Source: a virus (taxonomy: Duplodnaviria > Caudoviricetes). From it: a DNA stretch of 64,000 nt. The notes below the pieces were generated by a model. It had not been told where the DNA came from and made no database searches. It worked only from the letters and a program-made list of their open reading frames with translations. This document shows, in pieces, positions 1 through 64,000 of the stretch (position 1 is its first letter; each line of letters opens with the position of its first letter). A program made the position numbers and the translations under genes. The stretch lies in the IMG/VR virus record IMGVR_UViG_3300033991_000293, positions 706 through 64,705 of that record, one strand, 5' to 3'.

Positions 1-15
1 AACATAGGAGGAATC

Positions 16-234
16 ATGCCGACGACACCGCAACTGCCGCACACAGTGGTCCTTACATTCTACCCTGGCCAGCCAGGTAGGATGACCGCCAAAGTGGATG
101 GTATCTCGGGCCCCGCCTGTGCTAATGCCAGTGCATGGTTGGATCGCCTGGGGGATGTCCGGCAAGACCTCAAAACAGGCGAGTATTATCAGGATGGTCA
201 GGAAGTCCAGGCCAGGCAAACTGTGCAGACGTGA
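16..234 (+). CDS. DUF2997-like small protein
   Basis: RBS AGGAGG; motif V.G..G..C...S..L..LG.V.....T.EYYQ typical of DUF2997. Confidence 0.65.
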   Translation: MPTTPQLPHTVVLTFYPGQPGRMTAKVDGISGPACANASAWLDRLGDVRQDLKTGEYYQDGQEVQARQTVQT

Positions 235-312
235 CCTGAGATTTCCTCCTGGGGGATGGGCCACAGGTTGCAACCTGTGGCCCATCGATGTATACTGATA
301 ACAAGGAACCCA

Positions 313-654
313 ATGGGAACAGTCTATATACCGGATACCGCAATCTTGATCAGGGAGTGGCAGGCCCAGGCCACCTTTAAGTCTTATAAGTGGTTGGGTA
401 CAGGCCAGATCGCACTTCTGCCGGAACCTGCCCTGGACTACGCCACCCATCGCCCCGATCAACCCCTGATGATCGGCCACCCAATCATGCTGCGCGATTT
501 GACCATTCGTGTCATCGCCCGGCACCCAGGTCAGCCTGCCTATTTGGTAATGCGGGATGGGTGGAAGGCCCGCCTGCTGGCCTGGTTTCTCCGCAAATTG
601 CTGGAGAACCACAGGCCCCCGCATCCGCCAGAACTTATGCCCATCAAGGAGTAG
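313..654 (+). CDS. hypothetical protein
   Basis: ORF with AAGGA upstream of ATG 313, tightly packed with the next gene. Confidence 0.55.
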   Translation: MGTVYIPDTAILIREWQAQATFKSYKWLGTGQIALLPEPALDYATHRPDQPLMIGHPIMLRDLTIRVIARHPGQPAYLVMRDGWKARLLAWFLRKLLENHRPPHPPELMPIKE

Positions 655-662
655 GGAACAGT

Positions 663-2036
663 ATGGCAGCCCATGACGACAAAGCAGTCCCTGGCCAGCA
701 GTACTCGTTTATTGTCCGCTTTGGGACACCCGCAATCAGTGAGGGAGTCGTCCCCATCCCCAGGATCGTCCTCGACAACTACAGTGCCCTGGGCATCGAC
801 GACCGTACCATGATGTGGGTAGTACATCTCCTGGCGTACAAGTGGTCTGCGGATTCACCTTTCCCAAAAAGGGCAAGTCTGCATTGCACGGCAGGGGAAG
901 CAAGCCAGAAACGCTATGCCCGCCGTCTGCGCGAAAAGGGAGTGCTGTTTACCAGCCGCCGTTTCCAGAAGGGCAGAGTCGTCAGCCTGGTGTATGATCT
1001 CGATAGCCTGTTGCATAATTGTGTCCGTCTCCATCAGGCCACCAATGCCAGGATCGACGAGTATCTCGCCGAGAACATGTCAACCCTGGACCCCCTGGAT
1101 CGCTACCTGCGCGCCCACGTTCGTACCATCATCCAGGCCGATGTGCTGGCCATCTTCAAGGTGGAACTCCCACCCGAAGTGGAAACCCGTCTGAAAGCCG
1201 GAGAGTATGACGATGTCCCCCCGCCTTGGGACAAACTCACGCCGGCACCAAAAGAGGGGGAAGCCCTGCTGGACGAATACTTTGGCCCCCGCCAGGAGCC
1301 TATCCCATTGATAACTCAAGGGGATAGCAAGGGCAAGAATTGGGCCGACCCTGCCCAGGCAGGGGGAGCCAGCAGCAGCGCCGAGATAGTGGTTGATGGC
1401 ATCTGCCGATTCAACACCATCCCAGGCATCGAAAGCCTGCCACCTAAAGAACGGACCGCGCTCGTTCGCCACGTCCACGAGATAATCGAAAAGTGGGGCA
1501 GTGCCACGCCCGAACAGGCCAAACTCGCCTGGGAAGCCTGGACAATCCGGTATGGATGGCGTAACCAGTGCAACGCCTTCTATACTAACTTCGCCACCGA
1601 GTATGGGATGCTGCTGATTGCCGTCAAGGAAGGAACCATCACCCTGGAAAGTCTGCAGGAGGAAGATCAGCAGCAGGAACTCAAAGCCAGGAAGGATGAT
1701 CCCCAGGCCCCGCAAAACCGCCAGCACTACCAGAACTGGGCCACGGCACCTGGTAAAGTGATACCGGCACCGCCGACCGTACCGGATTGGTGGAAGCGCA
1801 TCCTGGATGATCTACGCCTGCAGATCACCGAAGCCTCATACAGCACCTGGTTGGCAAATACCAGCGCCACCCGTACTGATGGAGTGATCACCATCTTGGC
1901 AAAGAATGGCTATGGCAAGGATTGGTTGTCCCACCGGCTCCATGCTATCATCCTGCGAACTGCCAGACGTGTGCTGGATGAGGATACCCTGGAGATAGAG
2001 TTTGCCGTAAAGGAACAGCAGGAGGAAACAGCATGA
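663..2036 (+). CDS. replication initiator: N-terminal DnaD-like wHTH plus C-terminal DnaA N-terminal domain
   Basis: N-term VPIPRIVLDNYSALGI...LLAYKW...FP resembles a DnaD/phage-rep wHTH; C-term WKRILDDLRLQITEASYSTWL...NGYGKDWLSHRL is DnaA domain I-like. Confidence 0.75.
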   Translation: MAAHDDKAVPGQQYSFIVRFGTPAISEGVVPIPRIVLDNYSALGIDDRTMMWVVHLLAYKWSADSPFPKRASLHCTAGEASQKRYARRLREKGVLFTSRRFQKGRVVSLVYDLDSLLHNCVRLHQATNARIDEYLAENMSTLDPLDRYLRAHVRTIIQADVLAIFKVELPPEVETRLKAGEYDDVPPPWDKLTPAPKEGEALLDEYFGPRQEPIPLITQGDSKGKNWADPAQAGGASSSAEIVVDGICRFNTIPGIESLPPKERTALVRHVHEIIEKWGSATPEQAKLAWEAWTIRYGWRNQCNAFYTNFATEYGMLLIAVKEGTITLESLQEEDQQQELKARKDDPQAPQNRQHYQNWATAPGKVIPAPPTVPDWWKRILDDLRLQITEASYSTWLANTSATRTDGVITILAKNGYGKDWLSHRLHAIILRTARRVLDEDTLEIEFAVKEQQEETA

Positions 2037-2530
2037 CCACGAAACCGAGACTGAAGCGTGATTGGATAGGACGACGTGACGTGATCCTCCTGCCGATTGA
2101 CTATAGACCAGAAGGGGAGGAAATCTTGCCTGAAGTGTGGATAGGGCAGCAGGAAGTCAGCCAGGAGTTTGATGACCACCTGAAGTCGATGTGTAAACTG
2201 TTAGGTTGCGCCAGCATCGAGGGAGCAGCCAATCCCCGCCTGGCCTTATCGTCCAGGATCGCCCTGGCAATTCTGACCCTACAGGAACGGGCAAACATGC
2301 AGTCTGTGGGACAATGGATTCCTGTGGCCAGTCGTCTGCCGCAGTTTGGCAGCCTCGTCCTGATACGATTTGTTTACCCCGACAGAAGGCCCTACGTCGG
2401 TCTTGGTATTTGCCAGGATGAGGAATATTGGCACAAAGGCGGAGACCCGACCTGGCTCCTTGTACCTCGCCGATTTGTGTCCCATTGGTGTCTCATCCCT
2501 GATTACCTCAAGGTGGAGGGTATGGCATGA
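2033..2530 (+). CDS. DUF551-like phage protein
   Basis: QWIPVASRLP...VLI...VSHWCLIP motif; ATGA overlap. Confidence 0.6.
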   Translation: MTTKPRLKRDWIGRRDVILLPIDYRPEGEEILPEVWIGQQEVSQEFDDHLKSMCKLLGCASIEGAANPRLALSSRIALAILTLQERANMQSVGQWIPVASRLPQFGSLVLIRFVYPDRRPYVGLGICQDEEYWHKGGDPTWLLVPRRFVSHWCLIPDYLKVEGMA

Positions 2531-10654: not shown

Positions 10655-11037
10655 CAGGTGACCTCCACCATATCACGGAACGTGACCACGAAGTCCAGCA
10701 CCCGACCTGCCGTGACCTCCTCCTCTTCAGGCCAGATCATGACCGCCTCGAACACCGTATACTCCTCAGTGTCATCCCGCTGTTTGGTTTGGATATAGAC
10801 CCTGGCTGATGCATTGGGGCAGAATTCCTTCAACTGGTCACGTTGTGCTAAAGACAGGAAACCCCATCGCCAGGTAGCAGATGGACGCCCGAACCCGCGA
10901 ACAGTAAGATCGCCCAGGTCAACCTCGACCTGGTAACGCTTATAGGTTGACTTGGGAGCGAATACTGGGACCGTCAACTCCTCCACGTTGACCATGCCCA
11001 CTTCCGTCTCGCCGATCTCAAACTCGTACACCGCCAT
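10654..11037 (-). CDS. distal tail protein (putative)
   Basis: Directly follows tape measure, translationally coupled; size and position typical of Dit. Confidence 0.6.
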   Translation of the reverse strand: MAVYEFEIGETEVGMVNVEELTVPVFAPKSTYKRYQVEVDLGDLTVRGFGRPSATWRWGFLSLAQRDQLKEFCPNASARVYIQTKQRDDTEEYTVFEAVMIWPEEEEVTAGRVLDFVVTFRDMVEVT

Positions 11038-14000
11038 TACTGCACCGCCCCACGCAAGACCTGCGTGAATTGATCCTGTGCCTCCTCAGCCGCCACGCGC
11101 CGGAACCATTGCCGCTCGGCCTCGGAAAACCCCCCGTGAAACTCATACTGCTGCACCAGATGAAGAACGGCCGTTTTTTGTACAGGCCGACCGGCAGCCC
11201 CATCCACTAATCGCGCCTGAGTCAATGGCCCTAAACCGCGCTCGAGTGCACGTGCTGTGTTAGCAGCCAACACGAACTCCCCTCGATGCATCCGATAGGC
11301 ATCGGTGTCGTAGATGTAGCCACCTGCCTGCCGCCTACGAGGGGTAGGGACAACTGTAGTCGATGGAGTGGGCAGATTCCGCACATAGTCCAGCCACAGT
11401 TGGCGTTTGCTGGCCAGCCACGTCTCTGCATCCTTCAGCATGGCCTGGTGGTACAGCGCCTGGCGTAACTGGCTTTGAGTATAGTACTTCAACTCGGCAT
11501 TGATTTTGTCGAAGTACTCTTTATCGAGTCTGTCCATATTGGCCTGATGTTCAGCCGTAAGTTTCTCGACCTGCTCGGTATGCTGTGCAATCCGCTCAGC
11601 CTTTTGGGCCTCGTACTGCGCCCGCATATCATCCATCTCGGCCTGATGTTGTCTGGCCCGTTCGACTTGGGATTCTGCGAAGTCTGCATCGGCCTGGGAT
11701 TGCCGACGAGCGAAATCTTCTTCTGTACGAGTCCGTTGGAGATTGTAGGATTCCTGCTCGCGTAGCATGCCCATCGCATCACGATCACGCGCCAGGTCAT
11801 CCATGCGCAGAAGGTGATCCTCTTCCATGCGCCGCATCTGGATTAAATGATCCTGCAACTCCTTTTCACGCTGACGCCGGTATTGCGCCTCGGCCTGGGT
11901 CTGCTCCTGATTGAACTGTGCCTCGGCTTTTGCCCACCGTTCAGCGAATTCTCGCCCCATCTTGTCTAGTTCAGCATTGAGGGAGTCCAGTGCAGACGTC
12001 ACTGCATCGTTAAAGCGGTCAGTTTCCTCGGTCTGTTTGCGCAGCAACTCAATGTACAGATCAACTGCCTTAGACTGCTCGTCTGTAAGCGGAGTGACCT
12101 GGGTGAGTGCATCAGGCAGTTTATACAGGGAAGCCGCCAGGTCATTGGTGGACGCCGTAGCCGCATCAGCCGCAGTCGCCTCGGCATCCATCGCCACCAG
12201 TGCCTGCTCCAGCGCCCCTTCCGTGGTTTGCAGTTCGGCCAATTTGTCTGAAACTGCCGTAGCCGACAGGAGCCTCATCCGCCCACCCATGATCTCGATC
12301 ATCTTCTGGTAGTCGGACGGCTCTGTGAGAGTTTGTCCGAACAGTAACTCCAATTGCCGACCGTAGAAATCGACAGTGCTTGTGGTTTGGGAAGCATAGC
12401 GGGAGACAACCTCGACGTCCTGGCGTATCTGCGCCAGCGCCGCCTCCATCTCCGCCCTGGCCTGTTGCGACAGTTCAGCCGCCCGCGCCTCGCCCGCAGC
12501 CTGGCCCTCAGCCGTAGTGAACCATCCAGCCAGGCCCTGGCCGGTCAAGCCCCGCGATAGCAACTCGCCGACCCCTGCAGCCAACAATGCACGTCCCAGG
12601 AAACCGGCAGCCGCACTAGCGAATGTAGCCGCCCCCGTCTTTTCGATAGCCGTCTCTTCGACGGCCCCCGCCTTTTCGATGCTCGTTTCTTCGACGGCTC
12701 CCGCCTTTTCGATACCAGCCGCCTGTTCAGCAGCGCCGGTCACGATAGCCGCAAACCGCTCGCCCGCCGAGACCACCTGGCCCTGGAATTGTGTCCCTGC
12801 CGCCCCCTGCGCCGCCATTGTCCTCTGCAAAGCGGTCCCCATCGTCTGGACAGACGTGACCAGCCGCATGGTCGAAATGACTGTGCGCAGGATAGTCGCC
12901 GCGATCGTTCCGCCTGCCGCCACCGCCACCAGCGTCCCGATCTCAGGATGTGCAGAGACCAGGTCAGTGATCTCGCGCATGTATGCTGCGCCCTTTTCAA
13001 TGTAGGGCAAGGCAAAGTCCAGCGCCGATTCCCCGATCTTCAGCCAGAAGCCCTTCCAACGCATCTCAGCCTGCTGGACGCGATAGACGTCCGACTGCTC
13101 CCAATCCGACAACTGCTTGTTCCATAAGTCCATCGCGCCCATCATCGAGACCGAGACCCCCTCCGTCTCCAGCCGCAGTTGGGCATAAGCCTCGACCTCG
13201 TCGTCTATGACGCCCGCCAGCAGTTTGGATTCCGCCCGCACGATGTTGATACCCTTTTTCCTGGCCTCGATCTGTTGGTTAACCAGCGCAGTAACAGCAG
13301 GCATGGCGTTAGCCGTGAACATAGTCGCCAACAGTTCTTCCCTCTGTTGCTCGGTAGAATTCTCGGCAGCCGCAGCCAGCATGTCAATCACGTTAGCCAG
13401 GCCGATAAATGTACCCTCGGCAGTGTAGAATGGCTGATCCGTACCGAAAGCCGCCTCGAGTGCCTTCTTTGTCTTGTCCGTTGGCTCAATGAGGGATAGC
13501 AGCATCTGGCGGTATGCCCGACCCGCCTGGGAGCCCCGAATATTCTCGTTAGCCATGATGCCCAACATGGCAGCCGTGTCCTCGATGGATTCCCCCATCG
13601 TATGGGCCTGGGGACCAACGAACTTGAAAGCCTCGGCCACATCCCCCACAGTCGCCAGGGTATCATCTGAGACCTTCATGAAGATAGAAGTAACTCGACT
13701 GGTGTCGTCGAGGGTAAGGGCATATTGCCGGAGTGCAGCCGCAGTCCCATCGGTCACGGATGTCGCCTGGGTTTGAGTAAGCGCCGCCAATTGCTGGATG
13801 GGGATGGTCTGTGTCAGAATGCGGTTTAGATCGCTTTCCTGCTCGACCTGTTGGCCGGTAGCCTGCGCCCATTTCGTGATTGCCTCTGCCGTCTCCTGCG
13901 GAGTGATCAGCCCCAACTCCGCCGACATAGCGATCACCTCATCCCGCATTTGATGGGTCATCTCCTGGCTGAGCAGCAGGGAACGTGAAGCGATGTCGGT

Positions 14001-17000
14001 TTGCCTGGCCAAGTCCAGGTAGGATTTAGCAGCCATCGTCAGGGAGCCCGCCAGCGCAGCCGACGTGTACTGGATCGTCCTGGTCACATTTGAGATATCG
14101 CCCATGACCATGAAAAGGCCATGCGATTCCATTCTCGCCCGTGACAATTCACGCCCATATCGCCCCAAGACACCGAAAGCCCCCTTCGACGTAGCCGCAT
14201 ACTGCCCTGTACGCCGGTTAAGTTCGCTCTGCTCTTTGGAAATCCTCTGGAGAGTCCCGACGATAGTCTGGAGGGGAACACCCGCCTCGATAGCCTTCTG
14301 GATATAGTTGTCCCATTGGATACCCAATTGAGCAGCCATTTGCTTGGCCTGGCCTTCCAACGCCAGCGCCCGCTCTTTTTCTTTCGATAGCCGTTCTTGA
14401 TCCTTGATTTGGGCCTTTGCACCGGCAGTGGTACGCCGCTCGGCCTCAATCATCACAGCAGCCGCAGCCTTCGCCTGCTGCACCTCGGCCTCGCGTAAAG
14501 CCTTCGCTTTGAGGGTAGCACGCTCGGCAGCCTCGGCCTTTTGGGCCTGCCGTGTTTTGGCCTGCGCCACCGTCTCCGCCGTCAGCCGTTTCTCCTCCTC
14601 GATCTGGGCCTGGGTAGTGGCCCTGGCCTGAGCGATGGTCTGCTCGGCCAGCGCCCGCGCAGCCTGCGCTCGCTCGGCAGCCTCGGCCTTCGATGCCGCC
14701 ACCAGGCCCTGCCCCTCTGCGCCGGTCACGAATTTGCGCGCCTCGGCCTGGATGCGCTCGGTTTCACGTTGTGCCTCCAGTGTCACCATCTGGCCGACTT
14801 GGTCAGCCGCCTGTAGCAATTGCTGTTCGGAAACCGCAACTTGGTTGTAAGTATTCGCCACCTGATCGGCCAATACTGCCTGCTGGCCAGGATCAGTGGG
14901 GGGAGCCTGGGCCAGCATACGTTCGTAGACCTCGACATCCTGAAGCAGTTGGGCATGTTGCAACGCCGCCAATTGCGCCTGCTTTTGGACAATGGCATTG
15001 GCAATCCTGTCCATCTCAGTGGCATCCTGTCGGGCAACTTCCTCGATGCCGGTCTTCAGCGCCTGATACCACCGATCTCCCTCGCGCTCGAGTGCACCAT
15101 AACGCTCCCTGGCCTCGCCACCGCCCTTCTGCCATATACTCTCGCCGGCTCCAACCTTGAACCCGACAGGTAGCATCCCCTGGGCAAGTTTGGCCTGGAC
15201 TTCTGCCGTCTCCCCTAGAACCCGCCTGACCTCGTTGGCAGCCTCTTCGAAGCCCAGACGATACCGCTCGCCCGCCTCCGACCCCCGAACTGAAGCCCGT
15301 TCGAACTCGGCCTCGAGTGCACGGATCTCCTGCTTCAGCATCATAGTCTGTGAAGCCACCTGCTCGGCAGGGAATGCAGCCGCGATCTCCGCGAACGCTT
15401 TGACTAGCCGGTCAGCCGCCACCTCGCCCTGACTGGCCAGGGAAGCAAAAACAGGTTGCTGGCCAATGGATGCCAACCAGACCTCGATCTCCTGTACCAT
15501 CTCAGGGATGATAGACCGACCGACCAGCCGTTGACGTACCCATTCCCAAATCCCGACGATTCCCCGACCAGTCCGCTCGGCTGCCGCTCGCGCCTCTTCG
15601 CCCTCCATCGCCTGCAGGATACCAGCATGGAGTTTTTGCGCCTCGACGGTCAGCCTGGCCATGACCTCGGTGACCCCTGCTGCCGCCACCTCGAGTGGGA
15701 TACCCGCCCGCGTTTCTGTCCGGATCTCGCGCCTGCCCACGGCCTCGATCTGTGCCAGTGCATACCGTTCGGTCTTACCCAGGCCACTGGCAGCCAGGGA
15801 AGCCTCGTCCATGACCCTGACCAGTCCACCAATAGCCGCCTGCTGATCTTTCAGGATCGCCGTGGTCTGGCCCGCCACCTGCTCCAGCGCACGCTCGGCA
15901 GTGATGAAGTCAACCATCGTACCCTGCGCCTCTTTGGGTAACTCAACCTCGCCGCCCTTGATCATCCCGCCGAAAGCACGTTTTAACTGAGTCTGTAGCC
16001 GTTTGCGCTCTTCGAAGATTGCCTGCATCTCCTGAAGCGCCTGGCCTGCCGCACTTTGCCCCGCAGCCCGCAGATCTGCGGAGATTTGCTCCACTGACCC
16101 CGTAGACCATTCACGCCAGAATGCGAACTCCTCACGCAAAGGTTGCTGGAGCAGGGTACGCCGTAGAGCCATCTGCTGCTTCAAATCCTCCGCATCGCCG
16201 GTCATGGCCTGGGTACGAACAGTGTCGTATTCCTGCGTCAGCGCCATGTATTTCTGTTCCAATTCGGAGAAGCCTTGCTCCCAGGCTTTCTCCTCCTCTG
16301 TAATTGCCCCGTAGATACTGGTCAGGGTAGGTGGGCGTTTGGCAAGTTGGGCCTGCATCTGCTCCTGCATCTGGGCGATGGCCTCGGCGAGGGGAGCAGC
16401 CCTCTCCCGTGCAGCAGCAGCCGCAGCGTCCATCCGCTGACTGACCTGCTTTTCCAGGGGAGCCAATTCTGCATCGATACCCGCGATGGCTTTACGAATT
16501 TTGTCTCGATGGTATGGCTCCTCTAGCCCTTTGAACATTTCAGACAGTGTGGCCAGTGGCCCGCCACCCAGGGGTTGCACCTTTACCCGACCCAACTCAG
16601 CGAAAGCCTGGTTTAACTGCGTGATCCTGGCCTGCAATTCCTGCATGCGCAGGGATAGATCGAGAGTCCGTTTATCCTGGGCCGAAAGCGCCTGTTCCAG
16701 TTCAGGCATACCCTCAAGCAGGTCAGGGGCAAAGTGGGCAGCCTGCCCCACGTGCACCAAGCCCGTGATCTTGCTTTGCAAGTCGACGAGTTTCTCTTCC
16801 AGGTAGACCCACTGCCGCCCCAGGCCAGTGGCGATGGCCCGCCCCAGTGCACCAGCATCCTCACGCATCTCGTGCACCAGGTCATGCGCCCGTAGCAGGC
16901 CCTGGACATCTACCGTACCCTGGATGAGGATACGTTGGCCCGCCTCCTCTTTGAGCAGCCGGAGTGCAGCCTCGGCCTGGTCAAGCCCCGTGATCTGCAC

Positions 17001-42681: not shown

Positions 42682-42682
42682 G

Positions 42683-42880: not shown

Positions 42881-42893
42881 CACAGGAGGGACG

Positions 42894-44241: not shown

Positions 44242-45061
44242 AGAAACCCCCTTTTACCATTGCCAGGCCGACCAGCCACGTGATCACAGTCAGCCCAATC
44301 AGTACCCAGGCCCGCTCGCGCCGATAGATGAAAGCCAATACCGGCACCAAGTGGTAAATCAGGAGATACGGCGATGTGAGCAGGCCAAGCGCCAACCATT
44401 CAGCCTGGCCCATTGGGCCAGCACCCACCAGCAGGATCGCCCCGACAATCCCGACCTGGCTGATGCTGTGGGAAGTTTGCCAGTTTACCGCTTGGGTAGA
44501 GACCGGCACCCTGGCAGGCCAAAAACCCCAAACCAGAAAAGAACACAGTGTCACCGCCACCACCGGCAGGAACATCCGGACCCCGCCCCGCCAGGCCCTG
44601 GCCAATGCCCACCAGCACAGGATGTGTGGTTTGCAGGCCACCAATAGCAATGACCACTGTGGAGGAAGCAGGAAGGCCAGGGGCAGGAACACATCGATCT
44701 GGCCATAGTGCAGCGCCGCCAGCACCGGCATGGACAGTGCCAGCAGCAACACGCGCCACCAATCACGGCAGTAGACCGCAAGGACTGCAAAGCCCAGGGA
44801 GATAAAAACCCCGTAGCCTACAAGGGGGGGAAGAATTGCGATGGGATGAAGCAGCACAAATAGCCAGGGGGGATAACACGCCCAGGCAAAGCGATATGGA
44901 TCGTCGAGGGGATGGAGTGCAGCAGGCCGGAAGTACCGCATCCAATCTGAATCTGCGATGTCTCCAGGAGCCAGTGATGCCCCGAAGATGGCCACCAGCA
45001 GGAAGGCCACCAGAACAGCCGCCATACCGACTGCACGACTGGCCTGGATTTTAGGCATCAT
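44213..45061 (-). CDS. polytopic membrane glycosyltransferase, GT87/DUF2029-like
   Basis: Multiple TM helices; D...Y, YPPW, GQID and KPH motifs. Confidence 0.7.
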   Translation of the reverse strand: MMPKIQASRAVGMAAVLVAFLLVAIFGASLAPGDIADSDWMRYFRPAALHPLDDPYRFAWACYPPWLFVLLHPIAILPPLVGYGVFISLGFAVLAVYCRDWWRVLLLALSMPVLAALHYGQIDVFLPLAFLLPPQWSLLLVACKPHILCWWALARAWRGGVRMFLPVVAVTLCSFLVWGFWPARVPVSTQAVNWQTSHSISQVGIVGAILLVGAGPMGQAEWLALGLLTSPYLLIYHLVPVLAFIYRRERAWVLIGLTVITWLVGLAMVKGGFYESKYWSIF

Positions 45062-46979: not shown

Positions 46980-47744
46980 ATGATCACATTTTGTGTAGTG
47001 AATCAAAAGGGTGGGACAGCGAAAACCACGACCGCCGTCACGATGGCCCATGCCCTGGCGCTCGAGGGACGACGAACCCTTATCGTCGACACCGACCCCC
47101 AGGGGCATGTGGCTGTGGCCCTGGGAAAGGATAAGGCCCCAGGTATCCGCGCATTGATTGAGCAGCCCCATAACCTGCCGCTCGTGCAGGCCCGCCCCAA
47201 CCTGTGGATGCTGCCGAGTGACAAATCCACCGAACAGGCCAAGTGTATCCTGACCGGTATGCCATTTAGGGAGACTATCCTGCGTAGAGCCCTGGCCAAC
47301 CTAGACTTTGATGTCACCGTGATTGACTGTGCCCCAAGTCTAGATGTCCTGCACCTTGCCGCTATGATCGCCGCCAACTGGATGATCATCCCGACCCGTC
47401 TGGATTTCCTGGCAGTGGACGGAGTGAATGAAGTCCTCCGTACACTGACCACAGTCCGCCAGGCCGGCACCGCCCCGCGAGTCTTGGGTATCTTGCCGAC
47501 CTTTCTCGACCGGCAGACCTCCGAGACAGTTGTCCAACTCCGTACTTTGGCCAGCGCCTTTGTCAGTCTGGTCCTCCCACCCATCCCTGTGGATACCAAA
47601 CTGCGTGAAGCGCCAGCACATGGCTTGACGATCTGGGAGTATGCTCCCACGTCTCGCAGTGTTGTGGGTACACAAACCGGAAATGGACGCAAGGTTGGAG
47701 GATATCTGGAATTCATGGCACGAGTGAGGAGAGTCCTGAAATGA
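46980..47744 (+). CDS. parA: ParA/Soj partition ATPase
   Basis: NQKGGTAKTTT, DTDPQG, IDCAPS and KLREAPAHG. Confidence 0.95.
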   Translation: MITFCVVNQKGGTAKTTTAVTMAHALALEGRRTLIVDTDPQGHVAVALGKDKAPGIRALIEQPHNLPLVQARPNLWMLPSDKSTEQAKCILTGMPFRETILRRALANLDFDVTVIDCAPSLDVLHLAAMIAANWMIIPTRLDFLAVDGVNEVLRTLTTVRQAGTAPRVLGILPTFLDRQTSETVVQLRTLASAFVSLVLPPIPVDTKLREAPAHGLTIWEYAPTSRSVVGTQTGNGRKVGGYLEFMARVRRVLK

Positions 47745-48175
47745 GTAAGCACCTGGGCCCCAATGTTGTGGATGCCGCTCAGGTCATCCCTGAACCTGAA
47801 CTATCTCGTGTGCGCCGACCATCAGTTGATCCGGCAGTCGCCGCTCTCCTCGGCCAGGATGATCAGCGTCAGGCCATGCAGATTATGACACCGGCAGGCC
47901 GCAGGAAGTGGAAGCGGGAGCAGGCCCGAACTCGCGCAACGTATGACCTGCCGCAGGCCCTGCTCGATGCTGTCCGGCAGGTAGGAGAGCAGGAAGCCCT
48001 GCCCAATAGTGCAGTCGTAGCCGCCCTCGTAGCCCAGGGGTTACATCATCTCCAGGCCGGCACCTGGAGCCTGGAGGGAGCAAAGTCAATGGCCCGCTCG
48101 CCGCTTTTCGAGTACCTGGTGGATGAAGAAACAGTGCTGGCCATTTTGACCGGAAAACTGAGTTTACAGATTTGA
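47741..48175 (+). CDS. putative centromere-binding protein (RHH/ParG-like)
   Basis: Coupled to parA; RATYDLPQALLDAVRQ...SAVVAALV ribbon-helix-helix pattern. Confidence 0.6.
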   Translation: MSKHLGPNVVDAAQVIPEPELSRVRRPSVDPAVAALLGQDDQRQAMQIMTPAGRRKWKREQARTRATYDLPQALLDAVRQVGEQEALPNSAVVAALVAQGLHHLQAGTWSLEGAKSMARSPLFEYLVDEETVLAILTGKLSLQI

Positions 48176-48405: not shown

Positions 48406-50508
48406 GTGAGAAAGAAAATCGAATTCATGGCAGACCGGATCGAAGCCCTTTTGTCTCTGCATAAAGTGCCCGCCAGGGTTGCAGGGGGAACACTAACCCC
48501 GCGATGGATACGCTTTCAGGTCTTGCCGCAACCTGGCTATAAGATCAGCCGCATCAAGGGATTGACAGAGGAACTCGCAGCCGCTTTGGATGTACCCAAC
48601 GTCCGAGTGGCACGCATGGGAGCAGCGATCACCATCGAAGTGCCACGGGATGACCAGCAGCCGGTCAGGTTTGTCCCGCTCATGGCATATCTGGCTGAGG
48701 AGGGGGGATTTGTCCATAGCAATGCCCTAATTGGCCTATGTGAAGATGGAGCCCCCCTCCTGGTCCGGATTGCTTCCCCCGATGTCGCCCATATTCTGAT
48801 TGCGGGAAACACAGGATCAGGCAAGACCATGCTGATGACGTCCATGATCATGAGTCTGGCCATGACCCATAGGCCCCCCACCCCATCGGAACTGCTTCAA
48901 AGCAGGTATGCGAAACAGGCAAAACCGGAATCTGGTGGGCAGCAGACCCTGGGACTGATTCTGGTTGACCCAAAGGGGCATGCCTTTGCCCCGTTTGTCG
49001 ATCTGCCGCATTTGATCAGACCCATCATCCATGATCACGCTGAAACTACAGAATGCCTGGCCAGTCTTGTCCGCCTGATGGAGAAAAGAAGCGCCTCGCC
49101 CAACTTCACCGACCCCACGATCATCCTCTTTATCGACGAACTCGCCGACTACCTGATGGTGGAAGGCAAACAGGCAAACTTTCTCTTGACCCGCCTGACA
49201 CAAAGGGGAAGGGAAGCAGGTATCCACATTGTTGCTGCGACCCAAAAGCCAACAGCCGCCGTGCTCGGGCCCCTGGTGAAAGCCAACTTCCCTGTGCGTC
49301 TCGTTGGGCGAGTGGCATCCATCGAAGATGCCCGCACAGGGACAGGATGGGCAGGGACAGGAGCAGAAAGATTACAGGGGAGTGGGGATTTCCTGGCGAT
49401 TGGGGAAGGCCGATCTCTGCATTTCCAGTCGCCCCATGTCTCTGTCGAGGAACTAGAACGCATAGTCACCTGGATCTGCAAGACAGGGGGATGGACAAAG
49501 CAGCCCCCCGAACATCAGCAGGGGAAAGATACTCTTGGCAGCAAGGTGATGAGCAGCCTGGACAAGATTGTTGCACTATTCGTGCAGCCGGCTCCAGCAC
49601 CGCAGGAACCACCGCCCCAGGTCAAAGCCCAGGCGACACCTGCCCCCCCATCCTCCGCACTGCTGACCCGCCCCCAGGAAGATATACTGCCGCCTGCGCC
49701 CCCGCCCGCCCCAGATGACGTGGAAGTGCTGGTGCAACGTCTGCAGGCCCTGGATTGGGACCCGAACCGCTCTATCCGCGAAGCCTGTCGCGCCCTGGGC
49801 AAAAGTGAAGGGGGAGCCCCCTACCGTTTGGTTTCACAGGCAGTCGAACGTCTAAGGGCAGCCGCATTGACAAGCCAAGACGACAGTCAAGATGCGCAGC
49901 AGCAGGAGGAACAAGCCACCAGCGCCATCGAATGGCAGGTATATGAATGTCGCCTGCCGGTCAGTGACATCAGCCTGGCACAAGTCCTCATGGGGGATGA
50001 TCAGCCAGGGGATGATCAGCAGGGAAGGGGGGAACAAGTCCAGGAGGGGATGCTGCCTCCCATAGAACTGCCAGCGACTGCGACTGCGACTGCGAACGCT
50101 ACCACCGAGAAAGACCCCGACGCCACGCCAGCGCCGGATCTGCCGCCTTCTTTCGATAGTCGCAGTCGCACAGTCGCAGGGGAAGCAATCGACCCTGCCC
50201 GCATCCCCCCATCCATCTGGCTGGATCGGGAGTGCCTGCACCGCCTCGACCCACTGGCCAGGCTTTGGTTGCAGATACTCCAGCGCCAGGCCGATGCTAC
50301 AATACAACTGGCCCAAATCAGCGCCGACCTGCTGAGACTGACCACTGCTGGCAAGATGCATGGGGATGGTGATCACCTGGAGTTTCTATCCAATGCCCTG
50401 CAGGCCCTGCGCCTCAATATGGAAGCCAGGGACCGTGACCGCACAATCGATGCCTTTGCTGATGTACTCGACGCCGTGTTGATCGGGATAGGGGGAAAGT
50501 CAGAGTGA
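48406..50508 (+). CDS. FtsK/SpoIIIE (TraB-like) DNA translocase without an N-terminal membrane domain
   Basis: FtsK alpha domain, HILIAGNTGSGKT, VDPKG, FIDELAD, GREAGIHIVAATQKP and GAERLQGSGD. Confidence 0.9.
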   Translation: MRKKIEFMADRIEALLSLHKVPARVAGGTLTPRWIRFQVLPQPGYKISRIKGLTEELAAALDVPNVRVARMGAAITIEVPRDDQQPVRFVPLMAYLAEEGGFVHSNALIGLCEDGAPLLVRIASPDVAHILIAGNTGSGKTMLMTSMIMSLAMTHRPPTPSELLQSRYAKQAKPESGGQQTLGLILVDPKGHAFAPFVDLPHLIRPIIHDHAETTECLASLVRLMEKRSASPNFTDPTIILFIDELADYLMVEGKQANFLLTRLTQRGREAGIHIVAATQKPTAAVLGPLVKANFPVRLVGRVASIEDARTGTGWAGTGAERLQGSGDFLAIGEGRSLHFQSPHVSVEELERIVTWICKTGGWTKQPPEHQQGKDTLGSKVMSSLDKIVALFVQPAPAPQEPPPQVKAQATPAPPSSALLTRPQEDILPPAPPPAPDDVEVLVQRLQALDWDPNRSIREACRALGKSEGGAPYRLVSQAVERLRAAALTSQDDSQDAQQQEEQATSAIEWQVYECRLPVSDISLAQVLMGDDQPGDDQQGRGEQVQEGMLPPIELPATATATANATTEKDPDATPAPDLPPSFDSRSRTVAGEAIDPARIPPSIWLDRECLHRLDPLARLWLQILQRQADATIQLAQISADLLRLTTAGKMHGDGDHLEFLSNALQALRLNMEARDRDRTIDAFADVLDAVLIGIGGKSE

Positions 50509-52267: not shown

Positions 52268-52318
52268 TGAAGAAGAATCATGTTCTTGAAGAAGAAGAAA
52301 AGAGAATCAGATTCTAAC

Positions 52319-52345
52319 TGAAGTTTTGGCCTCGAACTTCGTTAT
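52319..52345 (+). promoter_or_regulatory. phage-sigma-type promoter motif 3
   Basis: TGAAGT-15-CGTTAT. Confidence 0.7.
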
Positions 52346-52362
52346 ATACGTAGGAAGAAAAG

Positions 52363-54625: not shown

Positions 54626-55006
54626 ATGGACATTCCTGACGATATGGCCGAGTGCTACGTGTACATCGTCTTGATGTCTCTGGATGATGGAACCGTTCTC
54701 TCAATGCCTGCTACACCACCCACCCGACCCGCAGGAGTCCTCGCCTTCATGACCCCTGAAATCGCCCTGGGTTTGGCAAGTGCCCTGGGAGTCGCCGGAG
54801 TGGTACGGGCAAAAGTGAAGGAAGCCATCCGCCTGGCCCATGATCATGGCCTCGCCTTATATCTGCTCGATCATACTGAAGGCAAGTACCACGAACTCAC
54901 AGGCCGCACAGACTGTATGGGGCAGCCTGAACCCCTCGCCCTCATCACGGGCAAGCCCGCGATGGAAATCGGGATAGCCCTCAGCAGGCCCACTGGCTAT
55001 GGATAA
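54626..55006 (+). CDS. hypothetical protein, paralogue of 54202-54624
   Basis: AGVLAF...ALGLASAL and C-terminal RPTGYG. Confidence 0.65.
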   Translation: MDIPDDMAECYVYIVLMSLDDGTVLSMPATPPTRPAGVLAFMTPEIALGLASALGVAGVVRAKVKEAIRLAHDHGLALYLLDHTEGKYHELTGRTDCMGQPEPLALITGKPAMEIGIALSRPTGYG

Positions 55007-55742
55007 CTGGTTGGGACCATATCACCTGGGCCCTGATGATAGGGAGACCTTTGGCATCTACCACGGTGATTGCCGAGATTTGACCACGGCCATCCCCGAC
55101 CATAGTATCCAGTGCATCTTTACTGACCCACCATATCAAAAAGTCTTTTTACCGCTCTATGCATGGTTGGCCCAGGAAACGCCCCGCCTCCTCACGCCAG
55201 ACGGGTTTCTACTCGTCTACTCAGGAGGGTATTGGAAGGACGTGATCATGGCCATGATGCGGGAGACCCTCGAATACTGGTGGGATTACCAGACGAAATC
55301 GACCGAGTCGCCCGTGATCTGGCAGCGCATGACTGTGGCCAAAGTCAAAAGTATCCTCGTCTATCGCCCCCCAGGGGGAATCGGTCAACCGCAATTCGGG
55401 ATGGTCCTCGGTCTGTGGGAAGGTGGAACCCAGGATAAAGCATACCATACCTGGTCCCAACCGGAATCTACTCAACGCTATTTCACCCAGGCTTTTGCAG
55501 CCCCCACCGGCATCGTTTTGGATCCATTTTGTGGAGGGGGAACTTGCCCTGCGATCTGCGCGGTCACTGGCCACCGATGGTTGGCCTTCGATAATGATAC
55601 CGATGCTGTGGAGCGAAGCCGTCTCCGTGTAAGCCGCCAACTCGATGCCCCACCACCCGCTTGTAATAATAGCCCTGTGGTACAGATTCGCCTCCCCTTT
55701 GCTGTACCAACCCCTGCCGACCTGACTAATCAAGCCAACTGA
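54999..55742 (+). CDS. N6A/N4C DNA methyltransferase
   Basis: IYHGDC, FTDPPY and VLDPFCGGGT. Confidence 0.85.
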   Translation: MDNWLGPYHLGPDDRETFGIYHGDCRDLTTAIPDHSIQCIFTDPPYQKVFLPLYAWLAQETPRLLTPDGFLLVYSGGYWKDVIMAMMRETLEYWWDYQTKSTESPVIWQRMTVAKVKSILVYRPPGGIGQPQFGMVLGLWEGGTQDKAYHTWSQPESTQRYFTQAFAAPTGIVLDPFCGGGTCPAICAVTGHRWLAFDNDTDAVERSRLRVSRQLDAPPPACNNSPVVQIRLPFAVPTPADLTNQAN

Positions 55743-55766
55743 AGTTCTGACAACGAATTGCGTTAT
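55740..55766 (+). promoter_or_regulatory. phage-sigma-type promoter motif 4
   Basis: TGAAGT-15-CGTTAT. Confidence 0.7.
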
Positions 55767-55797
55767 ATAGGTAGATGGATCAACCCAGGAGGAAGAT

Positions 55798-57798: not shown

Positions 57799-57800
57799 CC

Positions 57801-58706: not shown

Positions 58707-59060
58707 ATGCGCCACCCCATCCTTGACCAAGACCCGACCAGTGTAACACTAGCCTATGCCCACCATGCCGATAGTGCCAAAGTTACAGTGTACCACCACG
58801 GAACCCTGGCCCTCAAGGGGCAGACCCTGGAGAGTCTGGCCCTGGCCATAATCGAAGTGGCCAGGGAGACCTGGCAGGAACTGGCCTGTGTCCCGATCAT
58901 CACCAGGCCCCAGGAGGGGGAATTGCACATAGCCGTCTATGGCCTGGCCGACACAGAACAACAGGAATTCGAGACCTGGTTGTGGCGATTGAATGCCGCA
59001 CAGGTTTTGACCAGTCTTGGCCTCGAGTGCCCACCCAATACCCTGGATGTTGTACAATGA
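58707..59060 (+). CDS. hypothetical protein
   Basis: RBS GAGGA. Confidence 0.65.
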   Translation: MRHPILDQDPTSVTLAYAHHADSAKVTVYHHGTLALKGQTLESLALAIIEVARETWQELACVPIITRPQEGELHIAVYGLADTEQQEFETWLWRLNAAQVLTSLGLECPPNTLDVVQ

Positions 59061-59443
59061 GTCACGATACCTTCATGCAGGAGTGGGAAGCCTCTGTTAC
59101 TGCCTATATGCGAGAGTGGGAAGCCTATGTCACCAGCGCCAAGCAGGAGTGGGAAGCCGAAGTGATCTCTGCTCTAGCAGAGTGGGAAGCCGCTATGTCT
59201 GCCCTGCCCGATGGAGCCCCCCACCTGATCCATACCCCACCAACAGTCACGGCAGAAACAGTCTTTAACCACCATACTCCACCTGCCCTGCCCGACCTGG
59301 ACCCCCTCGATCTGGAACCGCCACCGATCGGTACTTCCTGGAAGCCCAAGAAAGTCGTAATCAAACTGAAAAGTCAAGCCGATAGCACGCCAGCGCCACC
59401 GGAGTCCCCCGACCGAGATCCCCTGGATATGATCGAAAAGTGA
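59057..59443 (+). CDS. hypothetical protein with 11-residue EWEA repeats
   Basis: ATGA coupling; four GAGTGGGAAGCC at 33-bp period. Confidence 0.65.
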   Translation: MSHDTFMQEWEASVTAYMREWEAYVTSAKQEWEAEVISALAEWEAAMSALPDGAPHLIHTPPTVTAETVFNHHTPPALPDLDPLDLEPPPIGTSWKPKKVVIKLKSQADSTPAPPESPDRDPLDMIEK

Positions 59444-59448
59444 CCACC

Positions 59449-59475
59449 TGAAGTTTTTGCGATCAACTTCGTTAT
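59449..59475 (+). promoter_or_regulatory. phage-sigma-type promoter motif 6
   Basis: TGAAGT-15-CGTTAT. Confidence 0.7.
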
Positions 59476-59510
59476 ATAGGTAGACCATGATCATACCCAG
59501 GAGGAAACAG

Positions 59511-61103
59511 ATGACAGATTTAGCCGACCGCAGCATAAGTACCGCCCTTCGTGCACGTGTCCCTGTTGTCGCAGTGGAAACGCACGAGGAAGATCGTATC
59601 CTCAGCATGCTCAGGGAACTGAGTGTCAACCCGCGATTCCCTGACCCGCGCAAGCCTGACGATGCGACCCGACCGATCTATGGGTGGAGCCTGGCACGTG
59701 GTATTGCCGAGATAGCCTCGACCGGCAGCCAGGTCATGATCCCGCCCGACCTGACTGACCCCATTGCCGCCCTGCAGTGGTTTCTCGATTGGGGCAAGAC
59801 CAACATTGATACCCCCGCGATCTTGGCGATGTTTGACCCCTGCCCCGCATTTGCCAAAGCCATCTTTACTCGCCTGGTACGCGAAGCCGCCATCGCCCTG
59901 CGCTCGCGTAAGCAGAACCTCTTCCTGGTAGCACCCAGCATTGACTTGCCTGCCGACTTGCGCCACGACGTGACCCTCATCACGTACCCCCTACCGACCT
60001 TCGAGGAATTGGTGCATCTCGTCAGCGTCAAGGTGGACACGATGCGAGATAAGGATGTGGCCACGGATCTGAAACAGGTTGACATCGAGACTGCCGCTCG
60101 CGCCCTGACGGGCATGACCATGATGAAGGCAGAAGAAGCCATGCGCCTGGCCATTGCCTCGACCGGCAGGTTTTATCTGGAGCAGGCCCTGCCCATTTTG
60201 CTCCAGCAGAAAGCGCAGATGTGCAAGGCCAGCGGAGCCCTCGAATATTTCCATACCCAGGCATCCTGGAGCGACATTGGTGGATTGGATCTCCTGAAGC
60301 AATATGCCGCCAAGTGCCTGCGCACATTCGAACCGGCAGCCGCCAGATTCGGAGTCCATCGCCGCAGGGGGATTCTCCTGGTTGGTTTGCCTGGGTGTGG
60401 TAAGAGTCTATCGGCCAAAGCCATCGCAGGCAACCGTCTGCCTCTGTTGCGCCTCAACGTTGGGGCATTGTTTGGGGAATTGGTGGGGCAGAGTGAACGG
60501 CAGACCCGCCAGGCCCTATCCATCGTAGATGCTATTGATCAATGCGTCCTACATGTGGATGAGATTGACAAGGGATTGGGTGAGTCTGCCGGGGACCGCG
60601 ATGGAAATACCAGCCAAAGAGTCTTTGGAACGTTCCTCACATGGATGGAGGAAACTTCCTCCCATGCCTTCGTGGTTGCTACGGCCAACCGCATCAGCGT
60701 CCTGCGTCCCGAACTCGTCCGGCGATTCGATACAGTCTTTTTCATAGATTTGCCCGACCCCATCTCCCGCAAGCAGATTCTCGAAATTCACCTGCGCAAG
60801 CGCAAGCAAGACCCGACCTGCTTTGATCTGGCGCATCTGGTGTCCCTGACGGAATGGTTTGTGGGAAGCGAGATTGAGCAGATCGTCGAGGATGCGGTCA
60901 TGGAAGCCTACTGCAGCGATCAGCAGGTCACCACCGATATCCTCATCGCCCAGGCCGAACAGAAGCAGGGGAATAAACTGACCACGATCATGGGTGAGGA
61001 ACTTGATGAAATGCGCCAGTGGGCAAGTCGCGCCCGCGCAGCCTCCAGCGCCCAGGCGACCGGTATCCGCACGGTCAGCGCCGAAGATGCGATGGAACTG
61101 TAA
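59511..61103 (+). CDS. Ycf46-like AAA+ ATPase
   Basis: ETHEEDR N-domain, DIGGLDLLK, GLPGCGKSLSAKA, HVDEIDK, FLTWMEE, ATAN and RFD..FFIDLP. Confidence 0.9.
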   Translation: MTDLADRSISTALRARVPVVAVETHEEDRILSMLRELSVNPRFPDPRKPDDATRPIYGWSLARGIAEIASTGSQVMIPPDLTDPIAALQWFLDWGKTNIDTPAILAMFDPCPAFAKAIFTRLVREAAIALRSRKQNLFLVAPSIDLPADLRHDVTLITYPLPTFEELVHLVSVKVDTMRDKDVATDLKQVDIETAARALTGMTMMKAEEAMRLAIASTGRFYLEQALPILLQQKAQMCKASGALEYFHTQASWSDIGGLDLLKQYAAKCLRTFEPAAARFGVHRRRGILLVGLPGCGKSLSAKAIAGNRLPLLRLNVGALFGELVGQSERQTRQALSIVDAIDQCVLHVDEIDKGLGESAGDRDGNTSQRVFGTFLTWMEETSSHAFVVATANRISVLRPELVRRFDTVFFIDLPDPISRKQILEIHLRKRKQDPTCFDLAHLVSLTEWFVGSEIEQIVEDAVMEAYCSDQQVTTDILIAQAEQKQGNKLTTIMGEELDEMRQWASRARAASSAQATGIRTVSAEDAMEL

Positions 61104-62725: not shown

Positions 62726-62930
62726 TGGATGGTTTGCAGGAGCAGACTACCCCTGGACTTTGCATTATTTCCGCAATGGCCAGGCCATCTGTGGGAGTCA
62801 GGATACTGCCTTTGCCGTCATAGGCCGGAGAATCTGTGCCGAGTGCACGGTCATAGTCCAGGCCGGAGTCAGGCAACAGGAGCAGCAATATAGGAAACTG
62901 CAAACTACATCATCAATAAGGACAAGATGA
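62718..62930 (+). CDS. small zinc-finger hypothetical protein
   Basis: LHYF....AICG...CAEC. Confidence 0.6.
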   Translation: MNDGWFAGADYPWTLHYFRNGQAICGSQDTAFAVIGRRICAECTVIVQAGVRQQEQQYRKLQTTSSIRTR

Positions 62931-62946
62931 ATCACAAACAGCCTCC

Positions 62947-62973
62947 TGAAGTTTTCACGATGTACTTCGTTAA
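62947..62973 (+). promoter_or_regulatory. phage-sigma-type promoter motif 7
   Basis: TGAAGT-15-CGTTAA. Confidence 0.6.
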
Positions 62974-63027
62974 TGTGGTGGGCAGCCTCCCAGGAGGGGG
63001 AGCCCTAGACTACAGGAGGAACAGATT

Positions 63028-63837
63028 ATGACAGACAAGACATTAGTTAACCGGAACATGCAACCCTGGGGAAGCAGCGCAGTCCTCGATGCCCTGGCTG
63101 ACCGATGGAAGCGCCTCGTCCCAGGAGGGGATGAACTGTCCCATGATCAGGCCCTGGCAGCCGCCCAGGCCGCCCTGTTGTGGGGAGCGAATCCCTTTAG
63201 TGGCCAGATTCGCGCCTGGATCACGAAAGAGGGGAAACTGATCATTATGCCAGGATATACCCTCATCGTGAATTGGGCGAACACAAAAAGTCCATTCATC
63301 CGCAAGTTTGAGAAAGTGACTGGCCACGGAGTGCCAAAGAGAGCCATCGCCTACAAATGCAGCATTCTCCGTGTGGATACCATGCCGGTCTTTAACGCAT
63401 TCACGGCAGGGGGAGCAGATTATCTGGCTGCCTTTGACTTGTGCGCGATCAGCGCCATAGGGATGGTCAAGCCGGATGAAATGTTCGACGAGGAAGGCAA
63501 TCCCATCCCCACCGGTCTGATCAACTGGTCTTGGGATGATGCAGCACAGAAACGCGCACTACTCAAGGGTATTCGGCAGGCTTATGGGTACCCGACCATC
63601 GCCGAGATTGCAGTGATGTCCTGGGGAGTTGAGGGAACTGAGACTGATGAAGATGATTGGGAGACTGCCTGGGAAGAATATCCAGCCGGCACCGACGACG
63701 ACCGCGCCCAGGTAGCCGCCCTCAGTGCCCGCACCCGCCAGGCCCTGGAGAAATTGGCCGAACTCAGTCCAGAACAACTGGCGCAGGAACTCGCTAATGC
63801 AAACCTGATGCTGCACCCTGCCCCTGCCGACATATAG
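63028..63837 (+). CDS. RecT/Red-beta-like single-strand annealing protein
   Basis: GANPFSGQI.AW...MPGY...WDDAAQKRALLKGIRQAYG. Confidence 0.65.
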   Translation: MTDKTLVNRNMQPWGSSAVLDALADRWKRLVPGGDELSHDQALAAAQAALLWGANPFSGQIRAWITKEGKLIIMPGYTLIVNWANTKSPFIRKFEKVTGHGVPKRAIAYKCSILRVDTMPVFNAFTAGGADYLAAFDLCAISAIGMVKPDEMFDEEGNPIPTGLINWSWDDAAQKRALLKGIRQAYGYPTIAEIAVMSWGVEGTETDEDDWETAWEEYPAGTDDDRAQVAALSARTRQALEKLAELSPEQLAQELANANLMLHPAPADI

Positions 63838-63852
63838 AGAGTGAGGAACACC

Positions 63853-64000
63853 ATGCCTATGACAGTGACAGTGAGGATCGACGACGATGGTCAAATCACT
63901 GAGTGTGTCGTTCCCCTGCCAGATATCCAGGCCCTGGAACTCCGCATCGCTACAGAGACCCAACAGCCGAAGATGCCACTGGCTTGGGTATTTCTGAGAA
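63853..64000 (+). CDS. hypothetical protein (truncated by the window end)
   Basis: RBS GAGGA; open to the end of the window. Confidence 0.5.
   Translation, partial: MPMTVTVRIDDDGQITECVVPLPDIQALELRIATETQQPKMPLAWVFLR

Follow-up and report, generated by a model that had tools for sequence, protein, structure and literature searches.

In the genome of a tailed virus (Caudoviricetes; IMG/VR record IMGVR_UViG_3300033991_000293), dozens of short G+C-rich words are absent or nearly absent from one DNA strand, and their reverse complements are present at close to neutral expectation. The stretch analyzed, hereafter the window, is 64,000 nucleotides (nt) long and corresponds to bases 706-64705 of a 64,705-bp single-contig virus record; unless stated otherwise, positions are those of the window. 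Bases 14-140 of the record are repeated at its end, and because the ends overlap the genome is complete, either circular or terminally redundant. The polarity belongs to the DNA molecule and not to the direction of transcription, and we consider it probable, with some reserve, that it built up through escape from many restriction systems dependent on inverted pairs of sites, namely Type III systems, including those that make N4-methylcytosine (m4C), Type ISP systems and MANTIS-like systems.

The original prediction, made from the sequence alone, held that GAGGY is banned from the + strand, and counting bore this out: neither GAGGC nor GAGGT occurs on +, and 140 and 68 copies (208 together) are found on −. 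The tetramer GAGG, with 156 copies on +, is always followed by A (81 GAGGA) or G (75 GAGGG). Two further words suspected of being scarce on + were indeed so, with 5 versus 182 copies for GCGGC and 1 versus 134 for CGGGG, and the five GCCTC reported inside 14401-14760 are there. The same rule had been claimed for ribosome-binding sites, and within 20 nt 5′ of the starts of 15 + genes all eight GAGG matches continued with A or G, and five of the six matches upstream of 25 − genes continued with T or C. Counts of each word against its reverse complement, together with a codon-preserving shuffle, placed GAGGY far under expectation on +. The mean numbers of GAGGC and GAGGT after synonymous shuffling were 32.6 and 24.1 in − genes and 12.6 and 7.1 in + genes, and none of 200 shuffles reached zero.

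The extent of the phenomenon was determined with a highest-order Markov model, which absorbs every lower-order skew. A word was scored as polarized when at least 6 copies were expected, no more than 12% of the expected copies were observed, and the complement reached at least 60% of its own expectation. By this rule, the window contains 39 polarized words of 5-6 bases, 12 other depleted asymmetric words and 6 palindromes. Each of 20 synonymous-codon shuffles gave 0-1 polarized words, a test in which overlap trimming put 3 of the 39 genes out of frame, so that their shuffles kept triplet composition but not the protein. Across the whole genome, the words with no more than 3% of their copies on + and at least 20 copies of the complement comprise 9 pentamers, a further 53 hexamers and a further 11 heptamers. 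The 9 pentamers and dozens of hexamers have 0-5 copies on +, where the model expects about 8-43. Observed and expected numbers on + are 0 and 41 for GAGGC, 0 and 31 for GGTTC, 4 and 43 for GGGTC, 5 and 42 for GGTCG, 1 and 30 for GACTC, 0 and 24 for GAGGT, 1 and 24 for CACTC, 0 and 16 for GGGCT, and 1 and 19 for CGGGG. The flagged hexamers include CGATGA, GAGATG, GAGCCG, GGTCTC, GGGCAC, CAGGTG and CGCTGG, and CGGTGG is a further example missing from +. In terms of + and − counts, GGGCT (0 and 147) and GGTTC (0 and 84) are as extreme as GAGGC.

The complements of the 9 pentamers occur at 0.82-1.14 times expectation (140/124, 84/97, 145/127, 166/166, 96/88, 68/83, 114/113, 149/166 and 134/128, observed/expected; GCCTC, for example, has 140 copies versus 124 expected, and CGACC 166 versus 166). 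The retained orientation is near neutral expectation and is not itself selected.

Several palindromes have been purged as well (observed/expected: AGCT 1/131, AGGCCT 0/34, CCATGG 1/25, AGCGCT 0/12.6, CGGCCG 1/11.5), and CCCAGC and GCTGGG, asymmetric yet lost from both strands, have one copy each. This palindrome depletion is classical restriction avoidance within the same genome. A number of G+C-rich words are spared altogether: GGGGGG and CCCCCC have 33 and 29 copies, the palindromes GGGCCC and GCCGGC are common (21 and 23), and CCAGG (322) and CCTGG (334), at about 3.5 times the base-composition expectation in the whole window, are unpolarized, as are words of the CCWGG type such as GCCAGG and CCTGGC (103 versus 122). 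The abundance of CCAGG and CCTGG may mean that they are 'safe' contexts for the GG and CC needed in coding, or that the site is methylated. GATC, too, is common in the window (386 copies).

Whether the bias follows the genome strand or the gene strand can be read from genes of both directions with Pfam or PHROG support, which are as follows.

11037-17186, − strand: tape measure gene (PHROG tape measure matches, best E 1.6e-34).
24627-25607, − strand: major capsid gene (phrog_1005, E 7e-65), the query for relatives and for the tree.
36949-39177, − strand: portal gene (phrog_113, E 8e-51).
39187-40938, − strand: large terminase gene (phrog_675, E 2.3e-88).
45051-46499, − strand: ParB-domain DNA methyltransferase gene (phrog_498, E 7e-73; PF01555, E 2.2e-18).
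390-2036, + strand: candidate replication initiator (DnaA_N PF11638, E 5e-9, above the Pfam cutoff; DnaD_N PF21984, E 2.6e-5, just under it at 24.8 bits versus 27).
46980-47744, + strand: ParA-type partition ATPase gene (PF13614, E 6.5e-33).
48406-50508, + strand: FtsK/SpoIIIE-like gene (PF01580, E 1.1e-24).
54999-55742, + strand: second DNA methyltransferase gene (PF01555, E 4.1e-7, 30.6 bits versus a cutoff of 26.7).
59487-61103, + strand: AAA ATPase gene (PF00004, E 2.9e-25).

The polarity belongs to the DNA molecule in genes of either direction. With the window divided into six segments, the zero counts hold in every one, also where + genes are clustered at 47-61 kb, and around the genome with its overlapping ends the polarity is uniform, with no switch of sign. 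Inside − genes, ten pentamers occur on + in 0-3 copies each, versus 17-49 expected from shuffles that keep protein and codon usage; inside + genes the corresponding values are 0-2 and 7-14, and none of 200 shuffles reached the observed value. The sense strand of the initiator gene follows the same word ban. The original prediction would have been contradicted by a bias tracking gene direction, and what was found instead is a bias tracking the genome strand.

The effect is plainly visible in codon choice. All 13 Glu-Ala pairs of the FtsK-like gene, open reading frame (ORF) 55798 and the AAA gene use GAA-GCN, as had been noticed beforehand (5 of 5 in the FtsK-like gene and 3 of 3 in the AAA gene), and the tape measure gene, with GAGGC and GAGGT freely present on its sense strand, uses GAG-GCN 36 times and GAA-GCN never. 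Extended to more genes, the count was 18 GAA-GCN among 18 pairs in five + genes and 47 GAG-GCN among 47 pairs in four − genes. This switch is complete in both directions because + also nearly excludes GCTTC, which reads GAAGC on the other strand (8 copies of GCTTC and 113 of GAAGC in the window). Codon fractions in − versus + genes are 0.24 and 0.57 for Ala GCC, 0.33 and 0.62 for Glu GAA, 0.34 and 0.11 for Arg CGG, and 0.10 and 0.33 for Gly GGA.

Coding or codon bias is ruled out by the same sign in + and − genes and by the shuffles, which never reproduce the effect. Causes acting on mRNA, such as ribosome-binding-like sites or RNA-cutting toxins, would track gene direction and are excluded on that ground, and replication-linked strand skew is excluded by a pattern that is all-or-none and of the same sign in every segment. 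A by-product of strand-asymmetric mutation or composition, through one-way replication or deamination of cytosine on an exposed strand, or of hairpin avoidance, is very improbable and is largely refuted by the counts. C does exceed G and A exceeds T all along the + strand, and polarization takes away most of the potential G+C-rich stems, as this idea would have it; but zeros stand beside complements at expectation, 16-43 copies are predicted even by Markov models that already hold the lower-order skew, and 0-1 words are flagged after shuffling with codon usage preserved. Runs of G6 and C6 coexist, the G+C palindromes named above are common and 20-bp hairpins are tolerated, which rules out avoidance of hairpins or G-quadruplexes, and the word sets are lineage-specific and in some cases reversed, as described next. 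T7-type primase sites (GGGTC/TGGTC) would explain two words at most.

Relatives were found by capsid and terminase searches and come from metagenomic collections only. The syndrome is present in four independent lineages with partly different word sets. The first consists of this genome and L021 (93% capsid identity), a locus of only 2.7 kb for which raw counts were used. The second, rel1, combines L001 and L006, has about 72% DNA identity to this genome and shows 25 polarized words in 35 kb. The third comprises L008, L009 and L025; L008 scores 9 words and L009 15, and these two are 99.7% identical and were counted as one lineage. The fourth is L007, with 3 words in 13 kb. L003 and L018 were too short for Markov scoring, and L022, L023 and L034 were omitted from it as copies of L006, L007 and L010. 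In the capsid tree, the polarized genomes form one clade with support of 97/98.

Independence of gene direction was also seen in rel1, where the FtsK-like and ParA genes run opposite to the structural genes and yet show twelve words at 0 versus 69, the other genes giving 4 versus 271. Across the 52.5-kb rel1 record, GGTGGC occurs 87 times in the forward orientation and never in reverse, compared with 1451 versus 1433 in a 4.3-Mb bacterial metagenome-assembled genome.

No polarized word passed the Markov test in the sister lineages, L026-L028 at 70% capsid identity and L019 at 65%, and at most one did in each of the other control and distant loci tested; phage T7, the positive control, scores 4 words, including CAGCAG with 0 copies versus 36 of CTGCTG. 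The raw fraction of polarized pentamers was dropped in favor of the Markov test, since it cannot tell short loci with strong G/C skew and genes in one direction (14 of 366 in L026 and 9 of 464 in L019) from genuinely polarized ones. A capsid gene of 65% identity lies on a contig of an Anaerolineae metagenome-assembled genome, and its locus is not polarized. L031, a metagenome contig with a capsid 58% identical, has no polarized words and lacks nine palindromic hexamers (CCCGGG, CCGCGG, CGATCG, CTCGAG, CTGCAG, GAGCTC, GGGCCC, TCGCGA and TGGCCA), which is a different, classical style of restriction avoidance. As the sister lineages score 0 and L031 avoids palindromes instead, the syndrome is no inherent property of this virus family.

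Lineages were compared by counts on the structural-sense strand, given here as word/reverse complement. GAGGT stands at 68/0 in this genome and 36/0 in L006 but at 19/19 in L008, and GGTCG at 166/5 here and 37/31 in L008; conversely, GGACC/GGTCC is polarized in rel1 (0/51) and L009 (0/67) but stands at 15/33 in this genome. Between lineages, full polarization in opposite senses was found for four duplex motifs. For CCGGCC/GGCCGG, the counts of 32/1 in this genome and 23/1 in rel1 are reversed to 0/61 in L009, 0/45 in L008 and 0/19 in L007; CGGCTC/GAGCCG is 0/20 here versus 25/0 in L009; CGACCG/CGGTCG is 0/49 here versus 20/0 in L009; and AGGCCG/CGGCCT is 1/26 in rel1 versus 47/0 in L009. All four are nearly balanced in G and C, and their reversal indicates that what matters is a single orientation and not which strand carries it. 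When the same proteins were recoded with strand-averaged codon usage, the purged orientation was the expected minority for 30 of 37 words. Together with the varying word sets and the reversals, this result indicates that selection is for one orientation as such, usually reached by the cheaper route.

These comparisons also bear on the idea of an absolute strand, according to which some process sees one strand only and is blocked or triggered by words there. The process could involve a single-stranded intermediate of replication or entry, a nickase specific for one strand, or a translocase that moves one way, for instance the FtsK-like protein of the phage. A ban of this kind requires palindromes to be missing too, as they are, the genome does encode an FtsK/SpoIIIE-like motor, and a T preceding leftover sites (see below) suggests one common reader; moreover, the polarity of shared words is nearly uniform, 61 having the same and 0 the opposite sense in the comparison with rel1, and 42 and 3 in that with L009. 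However, a reader of a fixed strand does not predict that the cheaper orientation is purged, that four motifs are polarized oppositely between lineages, or that sister lineages lack the syndrome; close relatives that differ in word sets also speak against it, and among the commonest 8-mers no dominant skewed word of the KOPS type was found. We therefore regard a fixed strand as an unlikely basis for the pattern.

Escape from orientation-dependent restriction is the kind of explanation best supported, since the retained orientation is neutral, gene direction is irrelevant, word sets vary and some are reversed. That part of the original prediction finds support; the single GAGGY-containing target site that it proposed is not, GAGGY being just one among about 39 polarized words. 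In such escape, selection at the DNA level would have cleared several palindromes from both strands and dozens of short, asymmetric, G+C-rich words from one. The agent would be a large and changing set of host systems that methylate one strand of an asymmetric site and cut only where two unmethylated sites face each other, and known examples of such systems are Type III systems of the N6-methyladenine (m6A) and m4C classes, Type ISP systems, and MANTIS or BREX-related systems. If all copies point the same way there is no inverted pair and hence no cut. The rarer orientation of each targeted word would usually be purged, and because most genes lie on one strand, nearly all words would acquire the same polarity and + and − genes would come to differ in codons. 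Reversals, the minority rule and lineage-specific word sets together are the signature expected of enzymes that cut only between inverted unmethylated sites.

Several points weigh against this explanation. Restriction enzymes as the agent, and their classes, are what we infer from polarization, independence of gene direction, variation among lineages and reversals, all of which were observed directly. For a single phage lineage, some 39 specificities would be very many. The reversals are confined to four motif families, and G+C-rich word space is narrow enough for chance coincidence to be possible. The available part of one study (PMC5737866) describes CglI, an enzyme recognizing GCCGC, and enzymes of the CglI/NgoAVII type as cutting head-to-tail sites most efficiently; the polarity of GCCGC (183 versus 5) would not evade such an enzyme, and CglI-like enzymes are thus ruled out for this word. 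The polarized words are strongly biased to G+C, as a random set of restriction motifs would not be unless the host systems, such as those of the m4C class, were themselves C-rich: among hexamer pairs with at least 20 copies, the fully polarized share is 68% for pure-G/C words (22 pairs), 29% for five G/C, 7% for four, 2% for three and 0% for two or fewer, and of 335 A+T-rich pairs with 10-24 copies, not one reaches full polarization. Finally, the leftover copies on + share their flanks, being preceded by T in 4 of 4 cases for GGGTC, 5 of 5 for GGTCG and 8 of 8 for GCTTC; leftover GCGGG is followed by A in 10 of 10 cases and leftover GCGGC by T in 5 of 5. The true words may be hexamers in which one position is 'not T', or there may be one reader with a common rule, and the shared flank hints at one agent instead of many.

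One or a few agents with a loose, G+C-dependent rule, for example a hypervariable or degenerate orientation-dependent system encoded by host or phage, would account for the steep gradient with G+C content, for a common rule of 'no T before, no A after' over different core words, and for pure-G/C words being polarized in all four lineages. Against such an agent stand the unpolarized GGGGGG and CCCCCC, the many unpolarized G+C-rich words based on CCWGG, and the all-or-none contrasts both between words that differ by one base and between lineages. We hold this account to be improbable.

Some constraint on the enzyme classes that cumulative escape would involve comes from the composition of the words. 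CGGGG, GCGGC and CCGGCC are polarized and free of adenine on either strand, so that classical m6A Type III or ISP enzymes alone would be insufficient, and the m4C class of Type III would fit. Systems of this class are described, in the available part of PMC8259958, as methylating cytosine at N4 on one strand of asymmetric C-rich motifs of 4-7 bp. Among 17 motifs listed there, 6 are polarized here with 0-4% minority copies (motif/complement: CCACCG 0/60, GCACCC 0/25, GAACCC 0/26, CACCGC 2/49, AGCCGCC 2/44 and AGCGCC 3/78). Of other Type III specificities in the published material available, GAGCC is 1/97 in L009 and the m6A motif AGCACC is 0/31 here. A further caution is that the overlap with published motifs is not clearly above a G+C-matched background, 4 of 6 hexamers with five G/C being polarized versus about 29%, and because G+C-rich words are polarized at a high background rate the overlap signifies compatibility only.

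As to the source of such pressure, the capsid gene on the Anaerolineae contig is a weak hint that the host may be an uncultured member of the Chloroflexota, perhaps with huge or fast-diversifying orientation-dependent defences that methylate one strand, many of them cytosine-based, and these may have driven the phage to a nearly one-way genome; we put this forward as possible but doubtful. If it is true, each fully polarized word is the fossil of one host specificity and the genome a catalogue of defence motifs, and one-way architecture is a general anti-defence strategy able to override codon usage. More broadly, this is the cleanest natural case in which genes on both strands obey a rule of one DNA strand, so that selection at the DNA level can be separated from coding bias. 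Orientation-dependent defences may purge about a thousand sites from a genome, an upper-end figure, since it sums neutral expectations over overlapping words, and through this selection codon choice comes to differ between + and − genes. Type III, ISP, MANTIS or BREX-like specificities of uncultured hosts could be predicted just from phage genomes, by way of words that one strand lacks and whose complements are at normal frequency, and the polarization signature could help to match phages with hosts.

Apart from the polarized words, the record is a complete tailed-phage genome in which a long tape measure gene is accompanied by partition and initiator genes of plasmid type. ParA and a small helix-turn-helix protein (46980-48175), together with the DnaA_N/DnaD_N protein, suggest a plasmid-like prophage stage. 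The hypothetical proteins that were tried against PHROG or Pfam yielded nothing beyond the initiator and ParA matches. A megablast search gave no match to cultured phages or plasmids, to which the terminase has at most 26% and the capsid at most 37% identity.

A conserved motif of about 43 nt, CTGAAGTTTT-N8-AACTTCGTTATA..., contains a short inverted repeat and, after it, a TATA-like hexamer. Seven copies are present, all on the + strand; each of two patterns matched six, the stricter one including the copy before the window. The motif may serve rightward transcription as a phage promoter or operator. This motif and two-hairpin elements of 76 nt are located as follows.

34062-34104, + strand: copy of the 43-nt motif.
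41673-41715, + strand: copy of the 43-nt motif.
52315-52357, + strand: copy of the 43-nt motif.
55736-55778, + strand: copy of the 43-nt motif.
59445-59487, + strand: copy of the 43-nt motif.
62943-62985, + strand: copy of the 43-nt motif.
Genome bases ~234-260, before the window, + strand: seventh copy of the 43-nt motif.
33984-34059: 76-nt two-hairpin element, between short genes where gene directions alternate.
34629-34704: second copy of the 76-nt element, in the same setting.
35381-35456: third copy of the 76-nt element, in the same setting.
34014-34057: one of three copies of a perfect 20-bp hairpin, which holds one of the four + strand GGGTC (34043).

The 76-nt elements, in which one of the two strong hairpins has a perfect 20-bp stem, are probably two-way terminators. 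An ARAGORN call of 'tRNA-???' with a four-base anticodon at 34650-34740, within one hairpin copy, is probably an artefact. Three tandem repeats of 33 nt (11 codons) lie at 12631-12729 in the tape measure gene, and three more repeats of this length at 59070-59168 in ORF 58982-59443 (+), just upstream of the AAA gene. A − ORF of 617 amino acids at 41644-43497 has no Pfam or PHROG match; a + copy of the promoter-like motif lies at its 5′ end, with a + ORF of 246 amino acids (41941-42681) downstream, and the gene call across 41644-43497 is uncertain.

Among known systems, Chi and KOPS resemble the words described here in being short, G-rich and strongly strand-polarized. Each is a single word in excess, with an incomplete polarity that changes sign at the origin and terminus, whereas the present genome has dozens of words, a retained orientation that is not over-represented, absolute exclusion and no switch. 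The near-absence of AGCT, AGGCCT, CCATGG, AGCGCT and CGGCCG is like the avoidance of Type II palindromes treated in a 2018 survey of phages (PMC6286503), which, in the part available, reports no systematic strand-asymmetric avoidance of Type I and III sites; here, in contrast, the strand-asymmetric class dominates. The m4C class of Type III in the available part of PMC8259958 is similar in its asymmetric C-rich motifs, with which the polarized words here are compatible.

A closer parallel is MANTIS, a BREX-related system. The accessible part of a recent report (10.64898/2026.09.23.753747) describes strand-biased depletion of MANTIS and Type III sites in Pseudomonas phages and a graded preference for inverted sites, so that there, too, a hemimethylating system preferring inverted sites selects for loss of sites from one strand. 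That report, as far as the available part goes, deals with a known host and with identified systems whose 6-bp motifs, already known, contain adenine, whereas the words here, of 5-6 bp, are G+C-rich, in some cases adenine-free, and number dozens.

The closest precedent is phage T7 and the Type III enzyme EcoP15I, for which the available parts of two sources (10.64898/2026.09.23.753747; PMC6286503) describe a uniform orientation of the 36 CAGCAG/CTGCTG sites. Direct repeats escape cleavage by Type III and ISP enzymes (PMC5737866, part available), and in both phages an asymmetric site kept in one orientation leaves no inverted pair for the enzyme. T7, however, has 4 polarized words and genes that all point one way, and therefore cannot separate coding bias from selection at the DNA level; the present genome has 39 such words, genes on both strands and strand-specific codon usage. 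In open-access full text (excluding supplements) and bioRxiv, we found no report of a phage with dozens of polarized words or with strand-dependent codon usage from such a cause. The principle is thus known from T7 and EcoP15I and from the strand-biased depletion in Pseudomonas phages, and this genome is a new and extreme case of what would be anti-restriction adaptation.

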